From a virus, in the IMG/VR virus record IMGVR_UViG_3300009506_000011, positions 20,187 to 84,186 of that record: a stretch of DNA of 64,000 nucleotides, one strand, 5' to 3'. Under the pieces are notes generated by a model. The model worked only from the letters and a program-made list of their open reading frames with translations. It was not told the origin of the DNA and did no database searches. A program made the position numbers and the translations under genes. Shown here piece after piece: positions 3,432 through 32,335 of the stretch (positions within the stretch are counted from its first letter, which is position 1; every line of letters begins with the position of its first letter).

Positions 3432-3492
3432 TCCGTAGCAGGACTCGGCCTGCTAGTCAACTAGCGTTGCCCGTGAAACGCTAGCGTGCTAG
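3432..3492 (-). promoter_or_regulatory. Promoter for the tRNA-like RNA plus GCTAGCGTGCTAG box
   Basis: TTGACT(3460-3455)-N17-TACGGA; 13-mer at 3480-3492. Confidence 0.55.
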
Positions 3493-3500
3493 TCAGCCGT

Positions 3501-6151: not shown

Positions 6152-6597
6152 GGGTTTCGGATCCGGTTGTCGGCGCGGCCTGGCCGACTCGTGCGGAACG
6201 TCAGCTCGACGCACGGCTCCCGCCACTCGTCGCCGTGGCCGTTGTTGCCGAGCTTGACGAAGCGGCCGGTCTTAGGCCGGCGGAAGCCAAAGGCGCAGCT
6301 ATGTCGGGAGTGCCAGGACCAGAACAGCTCTAGGCCGAGCAGCTTGTGCTCGTGCATGTCGAACGCCCAGCGACGAAGCTCCTCGTGCCATACTTGCCAT
6401 GGCCAGCCGTCCCTGGTGGTAATCGCCAGATCCAGGAATGGCTCGCGCAGCAGGTCGCCCCGGTGGCCTAGCCTGACTCGCCGGATGCCGACGGCTCCGC
6501 CGTGGCCGTCATGCCAGAACCAGTACAGCTCATGAGGGCCAAGCTGGTACTCGTGATTGTCCCAGCCCCAACGGCGCAGCCGCTCACGCCAGCTCAT
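6148..6597 (-). CDS. Hypothetical protein
   Basis: Trp/His-rich ORF within a coupled operon. Confidence 0.55.
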   Translation of the reverse strand: MSWRERLRRWGWDNHEYQLGPHELYWFWHDGHGGAVGIRRVRLGHRGDLLREPFLDLAITTRDGWPWQVWHEELRRWAFDMHEHKLLGLELFWSWHSRHSCAFGFRRPKTGRFVKLGNNGHGDEWREPCVELTFRTSRPGRADNRIRNP

Positions 6598-6684
6598 GGC
6601 ACCCGACTCTGTACTTTCGCAGCTCGGCCTTCTCCTCGTCTGTCAGATCCGGCAACTCAAAGCCCCATCGATCAAGCAACCGTT

Positions 6685-7239
6685 TCATGGCCACCTCGTC
6701 AGCTGGACATCGTCCGGCACTCGTGCCTTGCTCCGGGCGAGCGGATGCTTCGGGCTTCCGTCGCTGTTCTTGCCGAGGCACCACAGCTCGCGGCGCTCGT
6801 CTCGGCGCAGCGGCGCGGCTAGCCGCTGGCGGATCGACTCGCCGCGCTCAAGCGTCCACGGCTGCAGCAGTGCGCCCCAGGCTGCCACCACAAGCTCGGC
6901 TGACTGCGCGGCTCGCAGGACGTGGTAGTCATTGTGGACGCCCACAGCGGCCAGCAGACCGCGCTGCTTGATGGTCCGCTCGACCACCGCCGGATCGGTG
7001 GCTCGGAGAGCGAAGAGATTGACGACGATCAGGCTGCCGAATCCCCACCGGCGGCTGAAGCGGATGCAACGGCGGATCGTTGGATCGTCTTGCTCCGCGT
7101 CCGCGGTGGATGGATTGCACATGATCCAGCAGACGACCGGCCCGCCGCCGCCGCACGGTCGCACGAGGGTCCAGCGGTAGCGTCCGCAGCCGCTGATCCC
7201 GGCACCGTAGCCGACGGCGAGCGTGAGCTGCTGTGTCAC
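6685..7239 (-). CDS. DUF1643 family protein
   Basis: CGRYRWTL..WIMCNPSTADAEQDDPTIRRC..NLFALRATDP..AWG..KHPL. Confidence 0.9.
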   Translation of the reverse strand: MTQQLTLAVGYGAGISGCGRYRWTLVRPCGGGGPVVCWIMCNPSTADAEQDDPTIRRCIRFSRRWGFGSLIVVNLFALRATDPAVVERTIKQRGLLAAVGVHNDYHVLRAAQSAELVVAAWGALLQPWTLERGESIRQRLAAPLRRDERRELWCLGKNSDGSPKHPLARSKARVPDDVQLTRWP

Positions 7240-8057
7240 GACCGCCGCCGCTCCCGGAGAGCAAGTTCGATTTTGGCGTGTGCGGCGTCGGCATCATGTC
7301 GGCTTCGGATGCCACCTAGTAGCGTGGCGTAGTCAGCCTCTGCCGGCGCGGCGTGGCCGCTCGCGAGCACGTCCTCTGGCTTCAGCCGCACCAGCAGTTG
7401 GGCGCACAGCTCCGTCGCTCCTTCGCGTCCCAGCTCTGTGATGAGGCGCTGTGCGGTGGTCTCGGGGTCCGTGACGAGGTCCGTGGGCGTCTGGCCTTCG
7501 AGGTGGAGACTCACCTCGAAGGCTGCTAGGTGGCAGTCATCGCATGCATCTGACAAGCGCTCGTGACAGACCAGCTCGGAACGGATCTGCTCTATCCTCT
7601 CTGGCGTGCACTGGGATATGACATCGTTGCACGGTTCAGCGGGGGCCGTCTCTACTGTCAGCCAGGCGATGAGATCTCCCAGGTCAGCGCCGATCCAGTC
7701 GGCCGCCGCCCACATCGGCTCCGGCTCGCCAACTTCGAGTAGGACGGCCGTCGGCTTGTCTGCGCCGATGGCGTAGCCAAGCTCGAGGTGAGCGCTCCGG
7801 CCGCACGGCATGACGAGCACCAGCGCGTCGCAAGATTCGAGCGCCTGCATATCGCAGACGAAGCTCCGCTGGGCGATGGGGTGCTTCAGCGCCTCGACGA
7901 CCTCCTCTGCCGACCAGCTCTCCCAGGCTGGATCAATATCCGACCAGTGGAAGTCAGCGTGGGTGCGGAAGTCGTAGACATCGTTGCCGGCGGCGCGCAG
8001 CGCCTGAACGACGCCGGGCTGTCGCGGATTTCTCCAGCTGCTTGCAACATAGATCAT
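7236..8057 (-). CDS. Nucleoside 2-deoxyribosyltransferase-like protein with C-terminal extension
   Basis: IYVASSWRN..D..AL..CDALVLVMPCGRSAHLELGYAIG. Confidence 0.8.
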   Translation of the reverse strand: MIYVASSWRNPRQPGVVQALRAAGNDVYDFRTHADFHWSDIDPAWESWSAEEVVEALKHPIAQRSFVCDMQALESCDALVLVMPCGRSAHLELGYAIGADKPTAVLLEVGEPEPMWAAADWIGADLGDLIAWLTVETAPAEPCNDVISQCTPERIEQIRSELVCHERLSDACDDCHLAAFEVSLHLEGQTPTDLVTDPETTAQRLITELGREGATELCAQLLVRLKPEDVLASGHAAPAEADYATLLGGIRSRHDADAAHAKIELALRERRRS

Positions 8058-14317: not shown

Positions 14318-14385
14318 GCGGAGGGCGGCTCCGCGTGCCTCGTCAGCGCCGGCGCGACCCGGCGGACGCCTCACGGCGTTTCGGC
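14318..14385 (-). ncRNA. Type II hammerhead ribozyme with 3' hairpin
   Basis: gcc-GAAA-cgcc(gtga)ggcg-TC-cgccgg(gtcgcg)ccggcg-CTGACGA-ggc; complete core; GUC cleavage triplet. Confidence 0.9.
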
Positions 14386-14448
14386 TCTTTCGAGTGTCAC
14401 GGCTTTCGCCGGCCTATGGCATGGCACACCTCCTCTCCTGTGTCCCCC

Positions 14449-17014: not shown

Positions 17015-17015
17015 C

Positions 17016-17082
17016 GCCGAAACGCCGTGAGGCGTCCGCCGGTCGCGCCGGCGCTGACGAGGCACGCGGAGTCGCACTCCGC
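17016..17082 (+). ncRNA. Type II hammerhead ribozyme with 3' hairpin
   Basis: gcc-GAAA-cgcc(gtga)ggcg-TC-cgccgg(tcgcg)ccggcg-CTGACGA-ggc; predicted cleavage after C17036. Confidence 0.9.
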
Positions 17083-17106: not shown

Positions 17107-18132
17107 ATGAAGATCCGAGTTATCGTAGACCAGAAAACCGCACTCCGAGAAGGCATCGACGCGCCGACGAGCGCCTGCCTGATCGATATCGATCCTGCCG
17201 AGCTGACGGAGGAGGAGCGCGAGGTGCTCGCGTCCCTGCTCGCGTCCAACCACGACACCACCGCGTCGACACTGCAGGCCGCGTACGGTCAGTACCGCCA
17301 TCTCGAGGTGGTGTCGCAGGACCTCGGCGGACTTCGGCGCGGCCTCGCCGATCTGATCGCCTGGCGTGACCAGGTGCAGGCCGAGTGCATCGAGAAGCGT
17401 CGCGAAGCGGACGATCGGATCGACGCCGCCATTGCAAACCCGCCGCCGCCGCGCCGGCAGCTGGTCCGGCTGTCCGGCGGCGGCGTCATCGACGCCTACA
17501 GCGAGGACGAGACCACGATGGCGCTGGAGCTGCCGAGCGCGCCGGCGCCCGGCTACCTGCCTCACGCCTCCGAGGAGGCGCAGGAGCGGCTGTCGGCCGC
17601 GCGGCGCGCTGTCGACTTGGAGGAGGCGCGGCTGCGCGAGGCTGCGCGACCGGAGCTTGAGCGGCTCGTCGCCGCTCGCGACGAGAAGCGCCGTCTCGCC
17701 GAGGAGGCGAAGCAGGCCGAGTACAACGCCGTCTACCAGCGCCTGCCGGTGATCCTGCGCGAGCGGCACAGAGCCGGCTACGCCTCTCCTGGCGAGGTCC
17801 GACTTGCCTTCCAGCAGCAGGTGCTGGCCGACACTGGCCAGGAGCTGGATCCTTGGTGCACGGCCGAAAATGCCAGCTCCGGAGAGCTGGCATGGCTGAG
17901 CAACGACGAGTTCCTCGCGCTCCAGCGCGCTCGCGCGGCTGCGCCTCCCGGCGCCACAGTGACGCCGGCGCTGATTTGGCTGAGCGAGCGGAGGCCAGCC
18001 ACCGAGGCGGAGCTCGACGACGACCTGGCCGACGAGGACGACGAGATCGAGGAGCGCATCGACGAGAGGCGCGTGTTTCTCGTGCGGTGGACGGTCGGCG
18101 GCGTGCCGATCACCGCCGTCGTGCCCATGTAG
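17107..18132 (+). CDS. Hypothetical coiled-coil protein flanked by hammerheads
   Basis: MKIRVIVDQK start; 341 aa. Confidence 0.7.
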   Translation: MKIRVIVDQKTALREGIDAPTSACLIDIDPAELTEEEREVLASLLASNHDTTASTLQAAYGQYRHLEVVSQDLGGLRRGLADLIAWRDQVQAECIEKRREADDRIDAAIANPPPPRRQLVRLSGGGVIDAYSEDETTMALELPSAPAPGYLPHASEEAQERLSAARRAVDLEEARLREAARPELERLVAARDEKRRLAEEAKQAEYNAVYQRLPVILRERHRAGYASPGEVRLAFQQQVLADTGQELDPWCTAENASSGELAWLSNDEFLALQRARAAAPPGATVTPALIWLSERRPATEAELDDDLADEDDEIEERIDERRVFLVRWTVGGVPITAVVPM

Positions 18133-18211
18133 CCGAAACGTTGCCGCGCGAGCGGCGGCGTCCACCGGTAGCACCGTGTGCCGATGATGGCAGAGCGAGG
18201 TAGCTCCTCGC
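18132..18211 (+). ncRNA. Hammerhead ribozyme variant (CCGAUGA-U core)
   Basis: gcc-GAAA, 9-bp stem III with GCGA loop, TC, stem I, CCGATGAT-ggc; covarying 3' hairpin. Confidence 0.7.
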
Positions 18212-19517: not shown

Positions 19518-20203
19518 TCTGCGCCATTTGCTACTCCCCAACTTCCTACTCCCCAACTTCCTCACTCAACCCCCTGATCGTCGCGGCCGTGCGCGAGTGC
19601 GCCACGGTCGCCGAGGCTGCCCGGTGGCAGCGCCAGAGGACAGCGACGAACCCCGAGATCGTCAGCGGCTGCAATGCCTTGTGCGAGCTGCCAGGCGCCA
19701 AGCCCGGTGACCTGGTCGAGTGCTTCGGCGATGACTGGCTGCAGACCGGCGAGCTGACTGGCGTCGACGACGTGACGCAGTACCAGTGCCGTTGGCTCAT
19801 CGAGCCGCGTCTGCTCGACGCTCGCGACCTTTTGCTGCGAGGGACCGAGCGGACGAGGGATCAGCTCCCGGAGCAGTACGGCGACGTCAGCGCCGCGTTG
19901 ACGGTCGTCACGCACGCGATCCTCAGCGGCGCACTGCATGACCGGGAGGCGGAGCTGCGCGAGGCATGGTCCGTCGTCGAGGAGGCATACCGGTGCGCCT
20001 GCCGCAGCACCGGCATGGCCAACGAGGTCATGCGTGAGCAAACTCAGCCGCGCGACGAGGTGCGCTCGGCTATGGCTGCGCTGCCCCGTTTGCAGTCGAT
20101 GTCGGCGCTGCTGGAGCGCGCGCTCAAGTGCTGCACCGCGGCGCTACGCTTGGCACTCGGCCGCTCCGACGCCGGCCAGCTCATTGCGGAGGTGGCGTCG
20201 TGA
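19514..20203 (+). CDS. Hypothetical protein
   Basis: ATGA-coupled; 15-bp tandem duplication at 19531-19560. Confidence 0.55.
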   Translation: MICAICYSPTSYSPTSSLNPLIVAAVRECATVAEAARWQRQRTATNPEIVSGCNALCELPGAKPGDLVECFGDDWLQTGELTGVDDVTQYQCRWLIEPRLLDARDLLLRGTERTRDQLPEQYGDVSAALTVVTHAILSGALHDREAELREAWSVVEEAYRCACRSTGMANEVMREQTQPRDEVRSAMAALPRLQSMSALLERALKCCTAALRLALGRSDAGQLIAEVAS

Positions 20204-23191: not shown

Positions 23192-23441
23192 CTCTCCTCC
23201 GTCGAGCCATTGCTCGTACCGCCGCCAGCCGACGCTCGCGGTCGAGCTGCCAGCGGATCGGCGGATACAGCCTCGCCCATCGCTGTACCGTGCTAGCTGG
23301 CCAAGCTAGCTTTGCCATGTCGCCCCCGGCGCGGCGGATGGCGGCCATGACGAGGCGCCTCGCCGCCGCCTCCCCACGCCTCAGCCGCGCGCCGAGGGAC
23401 CGGCCGCTGTCAGCCACTGGAGCTGGCCAGGACGGCATCAT
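23145..23441 (-). CDS. Small HTH-like protein
   Basis: AIRRAGGDMAKL..STVQRW; coupled to neighbouring genes. Confidence 0.45.
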   Translation of the reverse strand: MMPSWPAPVADSGRSLGARLRRGEAAARRLVMAAIRRAGGDMAKLAWPASTVQRWARLYPPIRWQLDRERRLAAVRAMARRRRDGEEAQATAARPRQD

Positions 23442-24313
23442 GCCGCGCAGAGCCCCCACGCGACGCAGCTCGGCGTCCCCTCAAAAAACCAGTCGTGCTG
23501 CCGGCCGCCGCGGCTCGTCCGCGCCCAGCTCACCGCCTCGTCGATCGGCCGGTTGGTGCTCTTGATGTCGTCGTCGCGCCGGGCAAGCTCGGCCTTGGTC
23601 AGCTGCCGGGAGAACATCGTCGGCGGCGTCAACCCGAGGCTGTCGAAGGTCTCTCCCCGCGCCTCATAGCGAAGGCGCGCCGCCTCTTGGACGTCGGCCT
23701 CGAGCTGCCGGATCTCGTCGATGCGCGCGGGATCCAGGTCCGCTACCAGCCGGATCGCCGCCTTGCCAGAGCAGACACAGGGCCAGCAGCCGACACGCTC
23801 GGCGCCTTGCAGGTAGAGAGGGTTGGGCGCCAAACCGTGCCGGCGGTGGATCGCGATGACCTCGTCCTTCGTCCAGTCGATGATCGGCCGCCATACCTCG
23901 ACATCTCCCCACGCCAAACGACCGCGTGGCACGTCACGCTCCGGCAGCTTCGCGCGGCGGCGGGACTCCTCGCGACGCACGCCTACCGCGTTGACGACGT
24001 GATCATCAAACCGTGCCATCCAGGCCGCCATCGGCTCAAGCTTGAGTGTGCGCGTACACCATCTCATGCGGGGCGTACGGCTGGGAAACATGCCTTTCTT
24101 GCGGCACCAGTCGGCAAAGCCGCCGCCGGGCGAGCGCACCACGTCGATCTGGCCGAGCTTGTCCTGCAGCGGTCCCAGCACGTACTCGACGGTGGACGGG
24201 TGCTCCCATCCCGTGTCGGCGAAAACCCGCAGGTGCTCGATGCCTTGCTCCAGCAGGTAGAGGCACGCAGCGGCGCTGTCCTTGCCGCCGCTCACGCTCA
24301 CAATCGTGGTCAC
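23438..24313 (-). CDS. PAPS-reductase-family (CysH/DndC-like) protein
   Basis: SVSGGKDS PP-loop, FADTGWE, RWCT..LK, GVRREESRRR, NPLY..RVGCWPC. Confidence 0.9.
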   Translation of the reverse strand: MTTIVSVSGGKDSAAACLYLLEQGIEHLRVFADTGWEHPSTVEYVLGPLQDKLGQIDVVRSPGGGFADWCRKKGMFPSRTPRMRWCTRTLKLEPMAAWMARFDDHVVNAVGVRREESRRRAKLPERDVPRGRLAWGDVEVWRPIIDWTKDEVIAIHRRHGLAPNPLYLQGAERVGCWPCVCSGKAAIRLVADLDPARIDEIRQLEADVQEAARLRYEARGETFDSLGLTPPTMFSRQLTKAELARRDDDIKSTNRPIDEAVSWARTSRGGRQHDWFFEGTPSCVAWGLCAA

Positions 24314-24597
24314 TGCACCCCCGGCAGATGAAGCAGCAGCCGCAGCCAGGCCGGGGTTCGGCGCGCTTCCCGCGCCATCCGCGCTCGTCTGGCTGGACTG
24401 CTGTCCGTCAACGCCTCATGCCAGCACTGTCGCCGCCGTTGCAGCTCCTGGCGGACCTTGAAGGTAAGCCACGCTTCTAGCCACTTGAGCAGCGCGCCAG
24501 CACGCGGTCCGCGGTTTTCTAGACGCGGGCGGGAATCGAACCCGCCCCCGGGACTGGAACCCGGGGCCCGCCATCGGGCCGCGTGCTGGCGCTTCAT
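24310..24597 (-). CDS. Possible leader ORF containing the tRNA-like structure
   Basis: Leaderless ATG after the promoter; GTGA-coupled to the PAPS reductase gene. Confidence 0.35.
   Translation of the reverse strand: MKRQHAARWRAPGSSPGGGFDSRPRLENRGPRAGALLKWLEAWLTFKVRQELQRRRQCWHEALTDSSPARRARMAREARRTPAWLRLLLHLPGVQ
24523..24584 (-). ncRNA. Minimal tRNA-like four-way junction (CCA at anticodon position)
   Basis: ACGCG|GCCCG-ATGG-CGGGC|CCCGGG-TTCCAGT-CCCGGG|GGCGGG-TTCGATT-CCCGCC|CGCGT; all stems perfectly paired. Confidence 0.75.
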
Positions 24598-26728: not shown

Positions 26729-27115
26729 ATGCCGGATTTTCAGCTCAAGCCCATCGGCTCCGAGGTGGTCGACTGGGACGATCCCGCGACGACGGACACG
26801 CCGAGCCGGCTCAACCCGGTGGTGCGCCACCCGCACAAGTATCACCGGATCTTCCGAAACTTTCCTCTCACGATCAAGGCCATCGTGGACGGCATCGAGG
26901 GACCCGCGGATGGCGCACTCGGTGGCCGGCTCTTCGCTTGGAGCTGGGTGGTCACGCGGGAGTCTGGCTACGCGCCGCCGATTCCGACGTCTGCCGGCTT
27001 CAGCAGCACGGTGGTTTTCCCGGCCTTCCACTTCCTCACCGGCCACTACGAGCTGCTGTGCTCGCGGCCTGACGGTGGCGCCGTAGGCGTCACCTTCGAG
27101 ATCGAGGACACCTGA
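26729..27115 (+). CDS. Probable virion structural protein
   Basis: TAGGCT-N5-ATG leaderless start like the other tail genes; beta-rich. Confidence 0.5.
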   Translation: MPDFQLKPIGSEVVDWDDPATTDTPSRLNPVVRHPHKYHRIFRNFPLTIKAIVDGIEGPADGALGGRLFAWSWVVTRESGYAPPIPTSAGFSSTVVFPAFHFLTGHYELLCSRPDGGAVGVTFEIEDT

Positions 27116-27804
27116 GACGGCCGGCCCCACTCATAGAGCGCAATGGCCAACGCCCCTTCAACGGTCAAGCCCGAAACGCGCCCCTGCATCGGAATGGTCG
27201 CGTAGCGAACCGGTAGTCCCCTGGGAAGCCCAGAGCTTTCCCCGCCGAGCAACAGCGTGTCAACTGTCTCGAAATCAACGCCATCGAGCGAGTTCAGGGT
27301 GCCGGTTTCCAACGCTAGCACCCCGTTACCGACTGGCAGTTTATCGATGCCAGCGACATCAACGCGCCCCTTCGCGCCGTAGAGGTTGCCGCTCAACCCA
27401 CCAGCGCACCTGTGGGTAAGCAAGCTGCGCACGCCGAACGCCTCACAGGTCCGAACGGCGCGGTTGAGGTTGCGGCCGACGCGGTGCAGCACAACGCGTC
27501 CCACGGTGCACATGGTCAGCAAGCGGACCAGCAAGCCGGTACGGTCACGGCCGTGAAAGCAGTGCACGAGCAGCGGCCTGCCAGCCGACAGGGCGACGCT
27601 AAGCGCTGCTTGGGCTCCAGCGCCGCTGTAGCTTACTGGACTCTTCCGGTAGCCAATGCCGGCGCTGAGGCAGGCGCGCTCGACGACTGGCCTTGGTCGT
27701 TGCGTCAGGTCCAGTACGGCCTGCCCACCGGCGGCAGCAAAAGCAACGATATCTCTGCGCCTTGGCAGAGCTGAGCGCCAGATCCCTGGTAGAAACTCCT
27801 TCAT
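27046..27804 (-). CDS. Cys-dependent (DSP/PTP) phosphatase fused to a SPOUT (TrmH/TrmL-like) RNA methyltransferase
   Basis: LLVHCFHGRDRTG; NLNRAVRTCEAFGV..LLLGGESSGLP..IPMQGRVSGLTVEGALAIALYE. Confidence 0.85.
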   Translation of the reverse strand: MKEFLPGIWRSALPRRRDIVAFAAAGGQAVLDLTQRPRPVVERACLSAGIGYRKSPVSYSGAGAQAALSVALSAGRPLLVHCFHGRDRTGLLVRLLTMCTVGRVVLHRVGRNLNRAVRTCEAFGVRSLLTHRCAGGLSGNLYGAKGRVDVAGIDKLPVGNGVLALETGTLNSLDGVDFETVDTLLLGGESSGLPRGLPVRYATIPMQGRVSGLTVEGALAIALYEWGRPSQVSSISKVTPTAPPSGREHSSS

Positions 27805-28562
27805 GTCGTTCCGTCTATGACTTCGCGATCTCCGCAGATTTCACGTAGCAGGTCTGGGTAATAAGCCAGCTCCCACTCAACACGCCCGAAGCCGGCACCT
27901 CGCTTGCCGCCTAGGCTCGCAACCCTGATCTTGCGGCGGTCAAAGAGTCCGCCTCGGGTCATAGCATAGGCAGGGTGGACAGGAAGCTTGTGCTTGTAGA
28001 GGTACGCGAAGACGTCTTCTGGCTGCCACCATCCAATCGGAGCGCAAGTGTGGGCCGTGGCGATGCCGTAGAACTTCATCCGCATGTTCCGGCCGCTGCT
28101 CTCCTCCCCTCGAATGCCGGATACGTGGCGCTCGCCGTAGCGTTCGCGAGCCAGCGCGAAGCCGCGTTCAAGCGTCCCCTTTGCATGCCAGCCGTCGGAA
28201 TCGCGTAAGCAATGCACGACGATCTCATCATACGGTAGCGGATACTTGCGCAGGAATCGGTCTCGGACCTCGCCACACTCCGGCGAGCATATGGGCTCAA
28301 CGCGCACCCAAACAAGGGGCAGCCGCACCGTCTCACGATAGAACAGGCGCCACGCCAGGTGCGCCGCTACCGTTGAGTCCTTGCCCCAGCTCACACCGAC
28401 GTAGCAGGGGCCTGACTGTGCGAACTTGTGCAGCTCCCGGATGGCCTTCTGCTCCTTGCGCTCCAGTGCCCTGAGCCGAGCGCGCAGGTGGTCCTCACGC
28501 TCGCACGTCTTCCAATGCGCGATGTCGTCTGAGCGATGTCGTGGCGAGGGAACAAGGGTCAT
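27801..28562 (-). CDS. cysH: Type IV-B-associated CysH-like (PAPS reductase family) protein
   Basis: VSWGKDS, SGIRGEESSGR, PIGWWQPEDVFAYL..LPVHPAY; in the csf operon. Confidence 0.85.
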   Translation of the reverse strand: MTLVPSPRHRSDDIAHWKTCEREDHLRARLRALERKEQKAIRELHKFAQSGPCYVGVSWGKDSTVAAHLAWRLFYRETVRLPLVWVRVEPICSPECGEVRDRFLRKYPLPYDEIVVHCLRDSDGWHAKGTLERGFALARERYGERHVSGIRGEESSGRNMRMKFYGIATAHTCAPIGWWQPEDVFAYLYKHKLPVHPAYAMTRGGLFDRRKIRVASLGGKRGAGFGRVEWELAYYPDLLREICGDREVIDGTT

Positions 28563-29499
28563 GCCGCGCTAACCACAATCCGACCAAAGCCGAAGGCCGT
28601 GCGTCCACCGAGCCCCGGCCCATTGGCAGCGCACCTCAGCAGAAACTCGCCCACGGCGTTTGTGTCCACCACCACGTGCCCAACCCAACCGGAGATCAGG
28701 CCATACTTACCGCCCATGTCGACGACCTCCTTGCGGCTGTCGTGTGAGATCACTTTGAGCATGAGGCTGTCCCGGTCGAAGCTGTCCACGCCGACGCGCT
28801 CGGGCAGCTCGGTGGCTAGGGCCGCGGTCAGGGACGTCTGCGTCGGCTGGATTCTCAGTGTGGCCCTGCCGGTGGACTGGATGACGACAGGCGTCAGGGC
28901 GTCGATCCGCAGCTTGCGATGACCTCGTTTGGAGACGCGCGGGTACCGCGGTCGCCAGCAGGCGCCGAACCCCACCTCGACGGGCGCCTGAACAGCTCCG
29001 CTCCGACGCGCCGCTGCTCGTACAGGGCCCGTGCGGCCTCGGCATCACGAACGTAGATTGCCCAGCCGATGCCGCGCCTGTGGGGCAGCAACGCCCATTC
29101 TGGCCAGCGCTGGTGCTGCAATCCGAGCAGCGTGGTCATGAGCCCATGAAGGGCGCGTGTGTTGCGGTGGTCAACCGGCCAGCGCGGCTCTGGCTCGATG
29201 AACAGCTCGAAGCCCAGGCCCGGCATGTAACCGGCATACGGCGGAGCTCCGAGCAGCCAAGGCTGACGCTTGCTGCAGCCTCGCTTCGCTGCGCACCATC
29301 TGGCATTGCGCGCCCGAGCACTTGCCACAGACCGCGGCGTCGCCAGCTTGGAACGCTGCCGGCGCTTCCCTTGGCAAACCGGGGCGCCGCAGGTCTTCTG
29401 GTGCTTGCCCCTGGGCACGAATGGGGCCTCGCAGACTGCGCATCGGTACGTTGTGGAGATGCCGTCGGCGGTAGTGTAAACCTCAGCTTGGGACTGCAC
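28559..29499 (-). CDS. cas6: Zn-finger-Cas6-like RAMP, frameshift near 28983
   Basis: AAGGAG RBS with GTG start; CAVC..CGAPVC; ALHG; LTPVVI; GWVG; C-terminal G-loop GLGGRTAFGFG; two ORFs join with +1 nt at a CCC run. Confidence 0.7.
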
Positions 29500-30133
29500 A
29501 GAGCTGCTCCTTGGCATGTGCCCAGTAGGGGTACGTCAACGTGCGGTAGGCCATCTGCGGGTCAGCTAGGCCCGGCCAGTCGGGTGGCAGTGAGCGAAGC
29601 GGGCGCCCGTCGCGCACCACCGGGAAGCCGTCCCACGGCTCGCATGGCTCGACCGACCAGCGGCGGACCTTGCCCAGTCCAACGCCGCGCTTCTTGCCGA
29701 GATAGCTGATGATGGCGAGCAGCTGCGCAATCTCGACGCGCTCGCCGATACACCACCAGCACATGGCGTCGTTCACCATGTGCTGCCCCTCGAGCGGCAA
29801 ACGATAGCTCTTGCAGGGGCCAGCGCTGATGAGGACCCGCCGAAGCTTCGCGTCGCCCATGGCCTGCGCCTCGGCGAGTGGAAAACGGCGGTTGACCCAC
29901 CGGCGCTCCACGCACTCGACCTCGGAGACGCTGAACGACGCGAGGTGAAAGCGGCCGTCTGGCTCGCGCTCAATCGGGATCTCGATAGGCTGCACATCGG
30001 CAGCGCTGAGCGGCGGCGGCATCCCGTCCCGACGCGCCACCGCAGCGGCAAGCAAGGCGTCGATGGCCAGCGGTCCGCCGGGGAGCGCGATGGGGCCCAG
30101 CAGCTCGGCGGTGATGATGAGCGGCTCAGGCAT
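29483..30133 (-). CDS. csf3: Type IV Cas5-like subunit Csf3
   Basis: PLIITAEL..LAIDALLAA..GPCKSYRLP..YLGKKRGVGLGKVRRW..LR.LP..PYW. Confidence 0.85.
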   Translation of the reverse strand: MPEPLIITAELLGPIALPGGPLAIDALLAAAVARRDGMPPPLSAADVQPIEIPIEREPDGRFHLASFSVSEVECVERRWVNRRFPLAEAQAMGDAKLRRVLISAGPCKSYRLPLEGQHMVNDAMCWWCIGERVEIAQLLAIISYLGKKRGVGLGKVRRWSVEPCEPWDGFPVVRDGRPLRSLPPDWPGLADPQMAYRTLTYPYWAHAKEQLCAVPS

Positions 30134-31112
30134 TGACCGACCGGAGGAACTCGGCGATGCGGTCCTTCCGCTTCGCCACGTGGCTCCTGAACAGCGAGCC
30201 TACCTGCTCAGCGAGCGCGGTTACGTCTACCGGGGTCAGCTCGGCGGTCGTCACGAAACGGACGTCCTGCCCGGCTACGACGCGGAGCAAGCCGTGTCCG
30301 GTGCCGCGTTTGCCGCCCACCCGAGCGTTGGTCAAAAAGGCCGCCATGGCCACCTGAAACGTATCGAACTGCAGGTCGTCGTAAACGGTTGCCTCGCATG
30401 CCCAGGAAAAGCAGCTCCCTTGTGCGACACGCTCAAAGCGGCGCGGCATCATGCTGGACTTCTCGCGCTCCCTCCCGACTGCGTCGCCCTCGGCGCTGGC
30501 TTGCTCTGAGGCGGTGAGCCGGCGGTTGATCTCGACCTGATCTCCGACCGGAAGCAGCCGACGCTTTTGCGGGCTGAGGGTCGGATCCATGCGGGTGCGC
30601 TGGACCTCCTCGACGTGGGCCCGGCAGGTGTCCAGCTCACCGAAGTGCTCGGCCGCGAATGCCAGGGCCCAGCTTGGGACGTAGCGAACCGACTCCTCGC
30701 AGATGAGCGTCGCGTCCTCGACGACGAGCTGGCCGGGAATGACGCGGTTGTCTGAGCAGCCACCGAACAGCGTCATGCTGGGCACGAGCTCGCACAGCTC
30801 CCGGTAGCGGTCCAGGTTGATGGTGCCAGCGGAGCCGCGGCCTGTGACCATGCCGCCGGCGAAAAGCAGGCGCAGCGCCGCCTCTGAGAGCTTCTCTTCG
30901 CCCAGCAGCTCAGCGGCCTCGAGAAGGGCATAGGCCGCTGCCTCGCGCATCCCGTGGCGCATCGTGTCGCCGGTGATGATCGGCACGTGGGCCCAGCCGC
31001 CGTTGTGCCGGAGCTTCCGGCGCATGATGACCGCCTCGTTGCCGATTGTTTCCTCGTGATGAGCAATCGGCAGCGCCGCCTCAAGCACGCACTCATATCG
31101 CTTCAGTCGCAT
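30126..31112 (-). CDS. csf2: Type IV Cas7-like backbone Csf2
   Basis: PIAHH..VPIITGDTMRHGMRE..LLFAGG..SMTLFGG..VGGKRGTGHG. Confidence 0.9.
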   Translation of the reverse strand: MRLKRYECVLEAALPIAHHEETIGNEAVIMRRKLRHNGGWAHVPIITGDTMRHGMREAAAYALLEAAELLGEEKLSEAALRLLFAGGMVTGRGSAGTINLDRYRELCELVPSMTLFGGCSDNRVIPGQLVVEDATLICEESVRYVPSWALAFAAEHFGELDTCRAHVEEVQRTRMDPTLSPQKRRLLPVGDQVEINRRLTASEQASAEGDAVGREREKSSMMPRRFERVAQGSCFSWACEATVYDDLQFDTFQVAMAAFLTNARVGGKRGTGHGLLRVVAGQDVRFVTTAELTPVDVTALAEQVGSLFRSHVAKRKDRIAEFLRSVNA

Positions 31113-31554
31113 CTCTACCTCTCTTATCCCAGCACTGCAGACATTGTCCCATCGGCGGAAGATCATAGGACATGACCAATCCGCACGTTTTGCATGTACG
31201 TTTCCTGCTTTCGGCAGCAAGCCGAGCCATGGCCATCAGCAGGCCGTACTCCCGCTCAACTAGGTCGAGCCATTCACCGGCAGCTCCCAGCTCCCCGACA
31301 GCGGCGCCGAGGTCAACCAAAGCCCGGCAGCCATCCTTGCCGAGCGTCGGAAGCTGCAGCCCCCGCTGCATCGCCGTCGCCCACTCGTCCGGGCTGGCCG
31401 TCCGTCTGGCGGCGCTCAGCATCCTGTTCTGGATTTGCTCCCAGTGCTTCAGCGGGCTGCCGCCGGCGGCAAGGTAGGCCCTTCGCAGCTCGAGCAGCAG
31501 CTCCACGGTCTTGGTTCGCAGGCTTTCGCGCTGCTTTTCGTCCAGCCTTGGCAC
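31093..31554 (-). CDS. cas11: Type IV-B small subunit (Cas11-like) with C-terminal CxxC-CxxC
   Basis: AAGGAGG RBS; helical KHWEQIQNRMLSAARR..EW..RGLQL; located between csf1 and csf2. Confidence 0.7.
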   Translation of the reverse strand: MPRLDEKQRESLRTKTVELLLELRRAYLAAGGSPLKHWEQIQNRMLSAARRTASPDEWATAMQRGLQLPTLGKDGCRALVDLGAAVGELGAAGEWLDLVEREYGLLMAMARLAAESRKRTCKTCGLVMSYDLPPMGQCLQCWDKRGRDATEAI

Positions 31555-32299
31555 GCTTCGCCTCCTTTTCTGCGGCCATGCGCCGCTTGACTTGGTCCTC
31601 GTCGCGCTGCGCCAGCCACAGCGCCAGCGCGAACCATCCGCCGCCGCGCAGCTGTCCGCCTTTGGCCTCGAAGCGCTGCAACGTCTCGCTGCACAGCTGC
31701 CAGGCGCGCGCCTCGTAGCGCCCCGTTTCAAGCTCGGCTTTGGTGGCGCCAGCAGTCAGCAAAGACGCCAGCTCGTCAACAAGCGCCCATCCAGCCTCGT
31801 CGCCGGGAAGCCGGATCCTGGTCTCGTCGAACAGCACCCAGCCGCCGGGACCAGGAGGGTTCACCGGGGTCCACGGCAACACGTGTTTCTGGCCGCTGTC
31901 GGCGATGGCCGCAAACCAAACGCCACGGTGTGGCCGCCGGAGAAACTCAAGCACGACGGGCTTCTCGCCCTTGCTCGCGTTCAGGTACCGCGGCTCAGCC
32001 GCCGCGTCGTACAGGTGGGAGTAGTTGCGGTAGTTGCCGCCGAGCTTCTTACCGGGGGCTGGGGGGCGCCCGGGGACCGGGGAAAGCCTGGCACAGAAGT
32101 AGACGCACGGCTCGCAGACCCATTTGCTCTCTGGACAGCGAACGCGGTTTTGGCCTGTGAAGGTTGAGCCGTTCCACAAGCTGACTGGCTGGCCCCGTGT
32201 CAGCGAGGCGGCGCAAAGCCAGCAGCGACCATCGGCCGGCGCGCAATCGGTGTGCATCGGAGCGCCGAGGTGGTGGTGCAGCAGGCGCGTGGCGCTCAT
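31313..32299 (-). CDS. csf1: Type IV large subunit Csf1 (Cas8-like)
   Basis: CWLC..STFTGQN..SKWVCEPC Zn finger; IADSGQKHVLPW.PVN. Confidence 0.85.
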   Translation of the reverse strand: MSATRLLHHHLGAPMHTDCAPADGRCWLCAASLTRGQPVSLWNGSTFTGQNRVRCPESKWVCEPCVYFCARLSPVPGRPPAPGKKLGGNYRNYSHLYDAAAEPRYLNASKGEKPVVLEFLRRPHRGVWFAAIADSGQKHVLPWTPVNPPGPGGWVLFDETRIRLPGDEAGWALVDELASLLTAGATKAELETGRYEARAWQLCSETLQRFEAKGGQLRGGGWFALALWLAQRDEDQVKRRMAAEKEAKRAKAGRKAARKPANQDRGAAARAAKGLPCRRRQPAEALGANPEQDAERRQTDGQPGRVGDGDAAGAAASDARQGWLPGFG

Positions 32300-32335
32300 G
32301 ACGGGCATCCTGCCAGCCGCTAGCGTGCTAGTCAA
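32300..32335 (-). promoter_or_regulatory. Leaderless promoter of the csf operon with GCTAGCGTGCTAG box
   Basis: TTGACT(32335-32330)-N17-CAGGAT, then 7 nt to ATG; 13-mer at 32319-32331. Confidence 0.7.

Follow-up and report, generated by a model that had tools for sequence, protein, structure and literature searches.

A split Cas6-like gene in a phage type IV-B operon

The 64,000-nucleotide stretch of DNA analyzed here (hereafter the window) covers positions 20,187 to 84,186 of the IMG/VR virus record IMGVR_UViG_3300009506_000011 and carries on its minus strand a type IV-B CRISPR-Cas operon that includes a gene for a predicted zinc-ribbon-fused Cas6-like protein, interrupted by a single-base frameshift. 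The record is 84,186 bp long with a 144-bp direct terminal repeat and is rated complete. It encodes a large terminase (TerL), a portal protein, a head/DNA-pilot protein, a baseplate wedge protein and a DnaB-type helicase; the carrier is a tailed phage with a lytic-type genome.

Translations and alignment with homologues show a single gene (28559..29517, minus strand; alternative start GVG at 29499) that would encode approximately 313 amino acids if read through. In the window it is divided between two open reading frames (ORFs), 28894..29517 (207 aa) and 28559..28975 (138 aa), which overlap in different frames. The upstream ORF holds the zinc ribbon, basic helices and the first RNA recognition motif (RRM), followed by a 23-residue out-of-frame tail, as assigned from the secondary structure of a homologue model. 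The downstream half (28559..28984, minus strand), for which the listed ORF start is a GTG at 28975, holds the second RRM with the TP and GWVG motifs and a glycine-rich loop. The frameshift site itself is a GGG at 28982..28984 (CCC on the coding strand) where close relatives have GGGG, one base being missing here.

An initial annotation of this region, made from the sequence alone, had proposed that the two ORFs join if one base is added near 28983, and full-length homologues, the GGGG relatives and a switch in coding frame all bear this out. A search with the upstream-ORF protein returned 12 homologues of 266 to 331 aa (most of them 308 to 331), every one of which aligns across both window ORFs. 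The closest, P0003, is 71% identical and reads ELFRRPVQVRFG at the junction, where the window has ELFRRP before the break and VEVGFG after it. Profile A2 matches both gene halves, with E values of 8e-69 and 7e-63. Third-position GC (GC3) tracks the true reading frame in a GC-rich genome, and the GC3 coding signal changes from the frame of the first ORF to that of the second at approximately 28980-29040. The motifs listed in the same annotation (a C4 finger, ALHG, TP, GWVG and GLGGRTAFGFG) are all present in the window translations.

The Cas6-like gene is the fifth of seven minus-strand operon genes and lies between csf3 and a cysH-like gene. The operon begins with csf1, encoding the Cas8-like large subunit (31313..32299; PADLOC Csf1_0_IV, E 2.4e-23), with a probable ATG at 32299. 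It is followed by a cas11-like small-subunit ORF (31093..31731), which shares its 5' part with the tail of csf1, read in a different frame, and has an uncertain true start, and then by csf2 (Cas7; 30126..31220; PADLOC typeIV_Cas7, E 7.6e-40) and csf3 (Cas5; 29483..30133; PADLOC Csf3_0_IV, E 1.9e-34). The cas11-like ORF matches no family model; it is conserved by tblastn in all related loci, and GC3 favors its frame from approximately 31620. Downstream, the start of the cysH-like gene (27801..28562), a member of the phosphoadenosine phosphosulfate (PAPS) reductase or PP-loop family (Pfam PF01507, E 2.8e-8, above the cut-off), overlaps the stop codon of the Cas6-like gene. This gene also has weak NCBIfam CysD/CysH/DndC matches and is conserved beside the operon in most related loci. 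The last operon gene (27046..27804) combines a Cys-phosphatase-like N-terminal part with a SPOUT (TrmL/SpoU-like) methyltransferase-like part on the basis of weak matches to Pfam (Y_phosphatase3, E 6.9e-6; SpoU_methylase, E 1.8e-6) and NCBIfam (TIGR00185 TrmL, E 7e-4), and was not found in any related locus examined.

The assignment to type IV-B made in the initial annotation is confirmed by the PADLOC matches of Csf1, Csf2 and Csf3 (2e-23 to 1e-40) together with the adjoining cysH-like gene. No helicase or cas1/cas2 match was found among the operon genes and the neighbors scanned, the rest of the genome not having been exhaustively scanned for cas1/cas2. In primary papers and in reviews up to 2024, type IV-B systems have been described as lacking Cas6 and a CRISPR array (PMC7937560, PMC8175902, PMC11656645), and Pinilla-Redondo et al. 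referred to Cas6 in this subtype as 'rare exceptions: only 12 instances' (PMC7038947). The occurrence of IV-B in prophages, some lytic phages and an archaeal virus has also been published (PMC10848311). The usual trait 'Cas6 absent' does not hold for the present operon or for about half of the related phage loci, which contain a gene with a Cas6 fold, and the locus is a Cas6-bearing variant of type IV-B.

A divergent Cas6 family linked to type IV-B

The fold was assessed on the intact homologue P0003 rather than on the broken copy, using an AlphaFold (AF2) model built from a 12-sequence alignment (mean pLDDT, the predicted local distance difference test, of 75). Residues 1-34 of the model form short beta hairpins with four cysteines and residues 35-66 two helices, and from residue 86 the chain continues as two beta-alpha-beta-beta-alpha-beta units, that is, a double RRM. 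In a Foldseek search of the PDB with this model, the top 48 significant hits were nearly all Cas6, Cse3 (Cas6e) or type IV Cas6 chains. The highest VIA-align Z score, 12.2, was to 6njy_A, the type IV-A Cas6 of Mahella (208 residues, root mean square deviation 4.3), followed by 12.1 to Cas6 of S. solfataricus (4ilm), 11.8 to Cas6 of S. thermophilus (6fjw) and 11.2 to Cas6A of T. thermophilus (4c8y), and the Cas6 structural matches all span P0003 residues 86-308. Other repeat-associated mysterious proteins (RAMPs; Cmr3 and Csm4-type chains) and single RRM proteins scored 6-7. The Cas6-type protein with a double RRM that had been expected from the window sequence is thus recovered in the P0003 model, by Foldseek and by Z scores of 11-12, and in the conserved glycine-rich loop (G-loop).

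Sequence models detect the relationship below their thresholds. PF10040 (CRISPR_Cas6) gives sub-cut-off matches in 11 of the 12 family members (best E 4.3e-5), with 15.8-17.5 bits on the downstream half of the window gene and P0003 against a cut-off of 25 (E 0.007 for the window half). The PADLOC Cas6 model matches the downstream half at E 1.3e-4 and members of the family down to 5e-8, and a 56-sequence family profile searched against the PDB reaches 6FJW at E 0.0014 with the TP motif and G-loop aligned. The curated Cas6 thresholds (Pfam PF10040/PF01881 and TIGR01877) were not reached, TIGR01877 giving at most 32 bits against 58.65, and there was no match to the Csf5 model. Profile A2 searched against the PDB returned only a chance hit to the zinc motif of alanyl-tRNA synthetase (AlaRS), and an ESM Atlas search with the N-terminal 86 residues gave scores under 0.9, too low to be informative. 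Being consistent but sub-threshold, the Cas6 matches point to a divergent branch, and from the model and profiles combined the protein very probably represents a divergent, zinc-ribbon-fused branch of the Cas6 superfamily.

The predicted N-terminal C4 finger was confirmed in the window translation as C-x2-C-x13-C-x4-C (C26-x2-C29-x13-C43-x4-C48; 29374..29442, minus strand). Wherever the N-terminal region is present, the four cysteines of the finger are retained almost without exception (68-70% of 133 representatives, at an occupancy of 71%). This basic zinc-ribbon module may add contacts to nucleic acid or to a partner.

Two near-invariant histidines lie in the first RRM, H124 (in ALHG) and H135 in window numbering (29113..29148, minus strand), which correspond to H113 and H124 of P0003 (P0003 residue number + 11 = window number). 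They are 99% and 97% conserved, respectively, in the 133 representatives; in alignment A3, H113 is invariant and H124 at least 90% conserved. In the P0003 model H113 is inside helix alpha1 of the first RRM and H124 is four residues after the helix. The wider set of H113, H124, W141, P182, T198-P199 and the four G-loop glycines (P0003 numbering) is 93-99% conserved among the representatives, and R230 is also near-invariant. The G-loop, GLGGRTAFGFG (28583..28615, minus strand), matches the Cas6-type pattern GxGxxxxxGxG near the C terminus, has its four glycines 98% conserved and aligns with the G-loops of 6FJW (S. thermophilus Cas6) and 4C8Y (T. thermophilus Cas6A). Judged from structural ranges, H124 of P0003 would fall near the position of the catalytic His37 of TTHA0078, for which PDB entry 4C97 is the H37A mutant.

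In a profile search of 1.84 billion cluster representatives, 380 clusters (at 50% identity) scored E <= 1e-3, of which 205 also passed E <= 1e-30, and no curated family (Pfam, NCBIfam) covers them at its cut-off. Approximately 70% of the aligned family set carry the zinc ribbon, the others starting at the Cas6 core or having other N-terminal extensions, up to 780 aa. Five proteins of 600-780 aa (P0057, P0099, P0113, P0123 and P0137) have the Cas6-like core mid-protein with other domains around it, including one weak match to an ArsR-type helix-turn-helix. No member was found by tblastn with P0003 in PLSDB plasmids or GenBank phages, nor was near-identical DNA found in PLSDB plasmids. This absence from PLSDB and GenBank phages could be the reason that such genes hardly appear in surveys of finished genomes.

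Eleven loci were found through the protein, seven of them viral and four on contigs of metagenome-assembled genomes (MAGs), namely two from one Deltaproteobacteria/Myxococcota MAG, one from Sorangium and one from Acidobacteria. All 11 have IV-B genes directly beside the Cas6-like gene, with csf genes in nine; two short-fragment loci show only what the contig reaches (the cysH-like gene alone in L003; csf2 and csf3 in L011). The gene occurs in two orders, either csf3-Cas6-cysH, as in the window, or Cas6-csf1-cas11-csf2-csf3-cysH. This linkage persists through rearrangement, which argues for a shared function. The Acidobacteria locus (L004) additionally has a 498-aa gene between csf3 and the Cas6-like gene (6490-7986) with a weak match to PADLOC PDC-M51A (E 5e-6).

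Comparison with known systems and possible function

The best structural match is the Cas6 of type IV-A systems (Csf5; Mahella australiensis 6NJY, complexes 7XFZ and 8RC3), with which the family shares the two-RRM fold, the glycine-rich loop and a location inside a type IV csf operon. It differs in sequence (approximately 11% identity) and in an extra N-terminal part of approximately 85 residues made up of the zinc ribbon and basic helices. Unlike type IV-A, the present locus has no CRISPR array or DinG, and the partner operon is of type IV-B with cas11 and cysH-like genes. Stand-alone Cas6 proteins of types I and III (TTHA0078, 4C8Y; 6FJW; 4ILM) share the fold, the C-terminal RRM, the TP motif and the G-loop, and the conserved histidine approximately 38 residues into the core of the family appears close to the catalytic His37 of TTHA0078. 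In contrast to these proteins, the family has no repeat array, is fused to a zinc ribbon and has so far been seen only in uncultivated phages and MAG contigs.

The canonical IV-B system of the Mycobacterium sp. JS623 megaplasmid (Zhou et al. 2021, PMC7937560) resembles the window operon in having csf1-cas11-csf2-csf3 with a cysH-like gene and no array, adaptation genes, helicase or nuclease. The window operon is distinguished by its dedicated Cas6-like gene, its carriage by a lytic-type tailed phage and the appended phosphatase-SPOUT gene. A further parallel is the Cas6 of CRISPR-associated transposons (CASTs; PMC11656645), where the Cas6 of a mobile element could use RNAs from a host array, a precedent for an array-less element keeping Cas6. 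CASTs, however, carry their own arrays and a canonical Cas6, and for the present family the use of host CRISPR RNAs (crRNAs) is hypothetical.

The only type IV-B complex that has been purified bound heterogeneous RNA. A large and conserved Cas6-fold family in phage IV-B operons would imply that at least this branch recognizes specific RNA. With moderate confidence we regard the window gene as one that coded for an accessory of the Csf complex, binding or cleaving RNA, and that was inactivated recently. The intact protein would bind a structured RNA and probably cut it by means of the two near-invariant histidines of the first RRM. It would then stay on the RNA product and hand it to, or cap, the filament of Csf2 and Cas11, in the manner of Cas6 from types I and IV-A, and the IV-B complex would thereby gain a defined RNA. 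We hold this RNA-loading mechanism, reached by analogy with those systems, more tentatively, as a possibility falling a little short of an even balance. With no array encoded alongside it, the protein probably takes its RNA either from the host (pre-crRNA or a different hairpin RNA) or from a single-copy transcript of the phage. Host pre-crRNA would be the obvious candidate substrate, CAST Cas6 proteins that bind host crRNAs offering a precedent (PMC11656645).

Several results weigh against this interpretation. The 84-kb genome yielded no CRISPR array, mini-array or CRISPR-DR-like element, and 15 related loci yielded no CRISPR-like repeat; the CRISPR-DR search gave no match even at E <= 1. The operon flanks contain no shared sequence motif as judged from shared k-mers. 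The first RRM alone, searched against the PDB, returned chance hits only and no sequence match to a solved Cas6, and the two histidines are a candidate catalytic pair placed by their position in the model, without superposition. The Csf complex does not depend on the gene, as half of the related IV-B loci do without it, and the IV-B complex of a plasmid was found to assemble on heterogeneous RNA with no Cas6 present (PMC7937560). Finally, the evidence for the frameshift consists of contigs, not raw reads.

The initial annotation had suggested that the locus has or had an RNA substrate of its own, which is not borne out by the 84 kb of phage DNA and the 15 related loci, where no array, mini-array or repeat-like element was found. 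The specific substrates it had put forward, tRNA-like RNAs and units at 58.6-59.2 kb, are weak candidates, as ARAGORN calls no tRNA in the window and the 58.3-59.5 kb region gives weak two-copy matches only. Rfam returned nothing in the window at gathering thresholds. A blastn comparison between putative non-coding segments of the loci found only conserved coding sequence, the ORF mask being too leaky for the lower-GC loci.

Two kinds of candidate structured RNA lie elsewhere in the window. The first, at 24522-24584 (minus strand), is a compact four-way junction that includes a canonical T-arm (GGGUUCGAUUCCC) and has a predicted fold of -43.6 kcal/mol (z -2.1). It matches the tRNA-like mascRNA family weakly (E 0.45) and is not called as a tRNA by ARAGORN. 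Three full-length, sub-threshold matches to the type II hammerhead ribozyme are located at 14329-14386 (minus strand), 17015-17071 (plus strand) and 18131-18199 (plus strand), with 27-31 bits against a gathering threshold of 37; the first two are inverted near-copies of each other.

The intact protein might instead be a non-catalytic Cas6-fold subunit that binds RNA or the complex, or a decoy that sequesters host pre-crRNA as an anti-CRISPR and does not feed the Csf complex. Catalytically inert Cas6 and other RAMP proteins exist, IV-B loci are without arrays and the gene is dispensable in half of them. There is also a negative correlation between type IV-B and other CRISPR systems, and sponging of crRNA has been put forward as a role for it (PMC7038947, PMC8175902). 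A purely structural role, however, makes it hard to explain why two histidines at the positions of Cas6 catalytic residues are 97-99% conserved in 133 diverse representatives, and the strict adjacency of the gene to csf genes, in either of two orders, points to a protein that works with the complex. We consider this alternative unlikely, and prefer an RNA-binding or RNA-cleaving accessory of the Csf complex.

Such an accessory could, in a more speculative form that we think has only a slim chance of being correct, be the missing RNA-selection factor of type IV-B. The zinc-ribbon Cas6 family would select and cut a defined RNA, either host pre-crRNA or a non-CRISPR RNA such as a tRNA-like or other hairpin RNA of the host, and load it onto the Csf filament. 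The PP-loop CysH-like enzyme, here together with the SPOUT methyltransferase-phosphatase, would modify the bound nucleic acid, and a clamp-binding-like peptide at the C terminus of Csf1 would dock the complex at replication forks. If this RNA-selection reading were true, type IV-B would be an RNA-guided or RNA-directed phage modification machine, not a degenerate CRISPR remnant.

Origin of the break and neighboring features

The frameshift was examined in assembled Logan contigs from the source sample and from two other studies. The source sample is a marine sediment metagenome, and its independent Logan assembly contains a 29.6-kb contig (X1; 26.7x) that is identical to the window and has GGG at the site, with a word depth of approximately 27x at the break and no variant reported. 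A 262-nt contig from another study (X2) has an extra G after 28981 and is otherwise identical to the window. A 6.8-kb contig from a further study (X3; 26.5x) is approximately 95% identical, has the same extra G after 28981 and keeps the frame intact. Inspection of 28980-28986, which had been recommended for reads and was carried out here on contigs, therefore separates the GGG of the source sample from the GGGG of X2 and X3. The consensus sequence in the source population is the broken one, and the intact gene exists in very close relatives. An intact orthologue is also present in locus L030 (7634-8623).

Inside the gene, the window and X3 differ at 38 listed sites, 27 of which are third codon positions when each half is read in its own frame (p = 2e-6), and only 10 amino-acid changes were found in 319 codons. 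Because the substitutions are mostly synonymous in the frame of each half, both halves were under purifying selection until very recently and the break is young. The window copy is probably a fresh pseudogene, its function lost or being lost in this phage. The initial annotation had held that a confirmed frameshift would mark a decaying gene; for this copy that is upheld by the GGG consensus of both source-sample assemblies, but it does not extend to the family, which is clearly functional elsewhere.

It is improbable that the break is an assembly or sequencing artefact and that the real phage has GGGG and an intact gene. The window does come from a metagenome-assembled virus record, the difference is a single base in a homopolymer and two related populations carry the extra G. 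Against this, the independent Logan assembly of the source sample also has GGG at approximately 27x with no variant, a run of three versus four bases is not a typical site of short-read error, and the nearest Csf2 relatives have lost the gene entirely, which makes decay in this lineage plausible. Programmed slippage at C-CCG to give the full-length protein, or reassembly of separately made halves into a split Cas6, is very hard to credit and programmed frameshifting was rejected: the downstream half does have its own GTG at 28975 and contains a whole RRM, and both halves keep coding-type GC3, but the gene is read in a single frame in each of the 12 homologues and in the two close relatives, the site has neither a slippery heptamer nor a conserved stimulator, the GTG lies approximately 80 nt upstream of the stop of the first ORF and hence allows no coupling, and a recent origin alone accounts for the intact codon bias.

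A recent loss agrees with the distribution of the gene among relatives. Among 26 viral contigs found through Csf2, 13 (10 of them distinct) have the Cas6-like gene, one has a remnant and 12 are without it. Its presence is scattered over the Csf2 tree, requiring at least four changes, and in the subclade that contains the window (support 87/89) none of the six other members has the gene. The simplest history is that an ancestral Cas6-like gene was lost repeatedly, with the window copy at the first step. The window would thus offer a snapshot just after inactivation, its relatives having already deleted the gene, which fits the published idea that IV-B evolved by loss of Cas6-based processing. 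As the window copy is broken, it serves as supporting evidence and is not the best experimental entry point.

The cysH-like and phosphatase-SPOUT genes (27046-28565) have a third-position GC of 0.72-0.73, lower than that of their neighbors, and the similarity of X3 to the window breaks off precisely at 28565, immediately beyond the stop codon of the Cas6-like gene. These observations suggest a recombination junction at 28565 and a swapped downstream module. A second PAPS-reductase-like gene is present at 23438-24313 on the minus strand, approximately 3.5 kb from the Cas-linked one, and in locus L021 it hits the region that the cysH-like gene also hits (32% identity, E 3e-6).

At the other end of the operon, the csf1 ORF extends approximately 100 codons into the cas11-like ORF in the other frame (31313-31731, minus strand) as a low-complexity, basic and Ala-rich tail, an arrangement also seen in L002, L008, L022, L024, L031 and L033-L037. 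The tail terminates, in the majority of related loci, with a QL[SD]LF-type peptide (QLSLF, QLDLF, QLTLF, QLGLW and others) that resembles the bacterial sliding-clamp-binding motif, and the window has the variant QGWLPGFG. The 17-mer CGCTAGCGTGCTAGTCA occurs twice, at 3479-3495 and at 32318-32334, the second copy overlapping a TTGACT box just upstream of the csf1 start, and may be a shared phage promoter or operator element.

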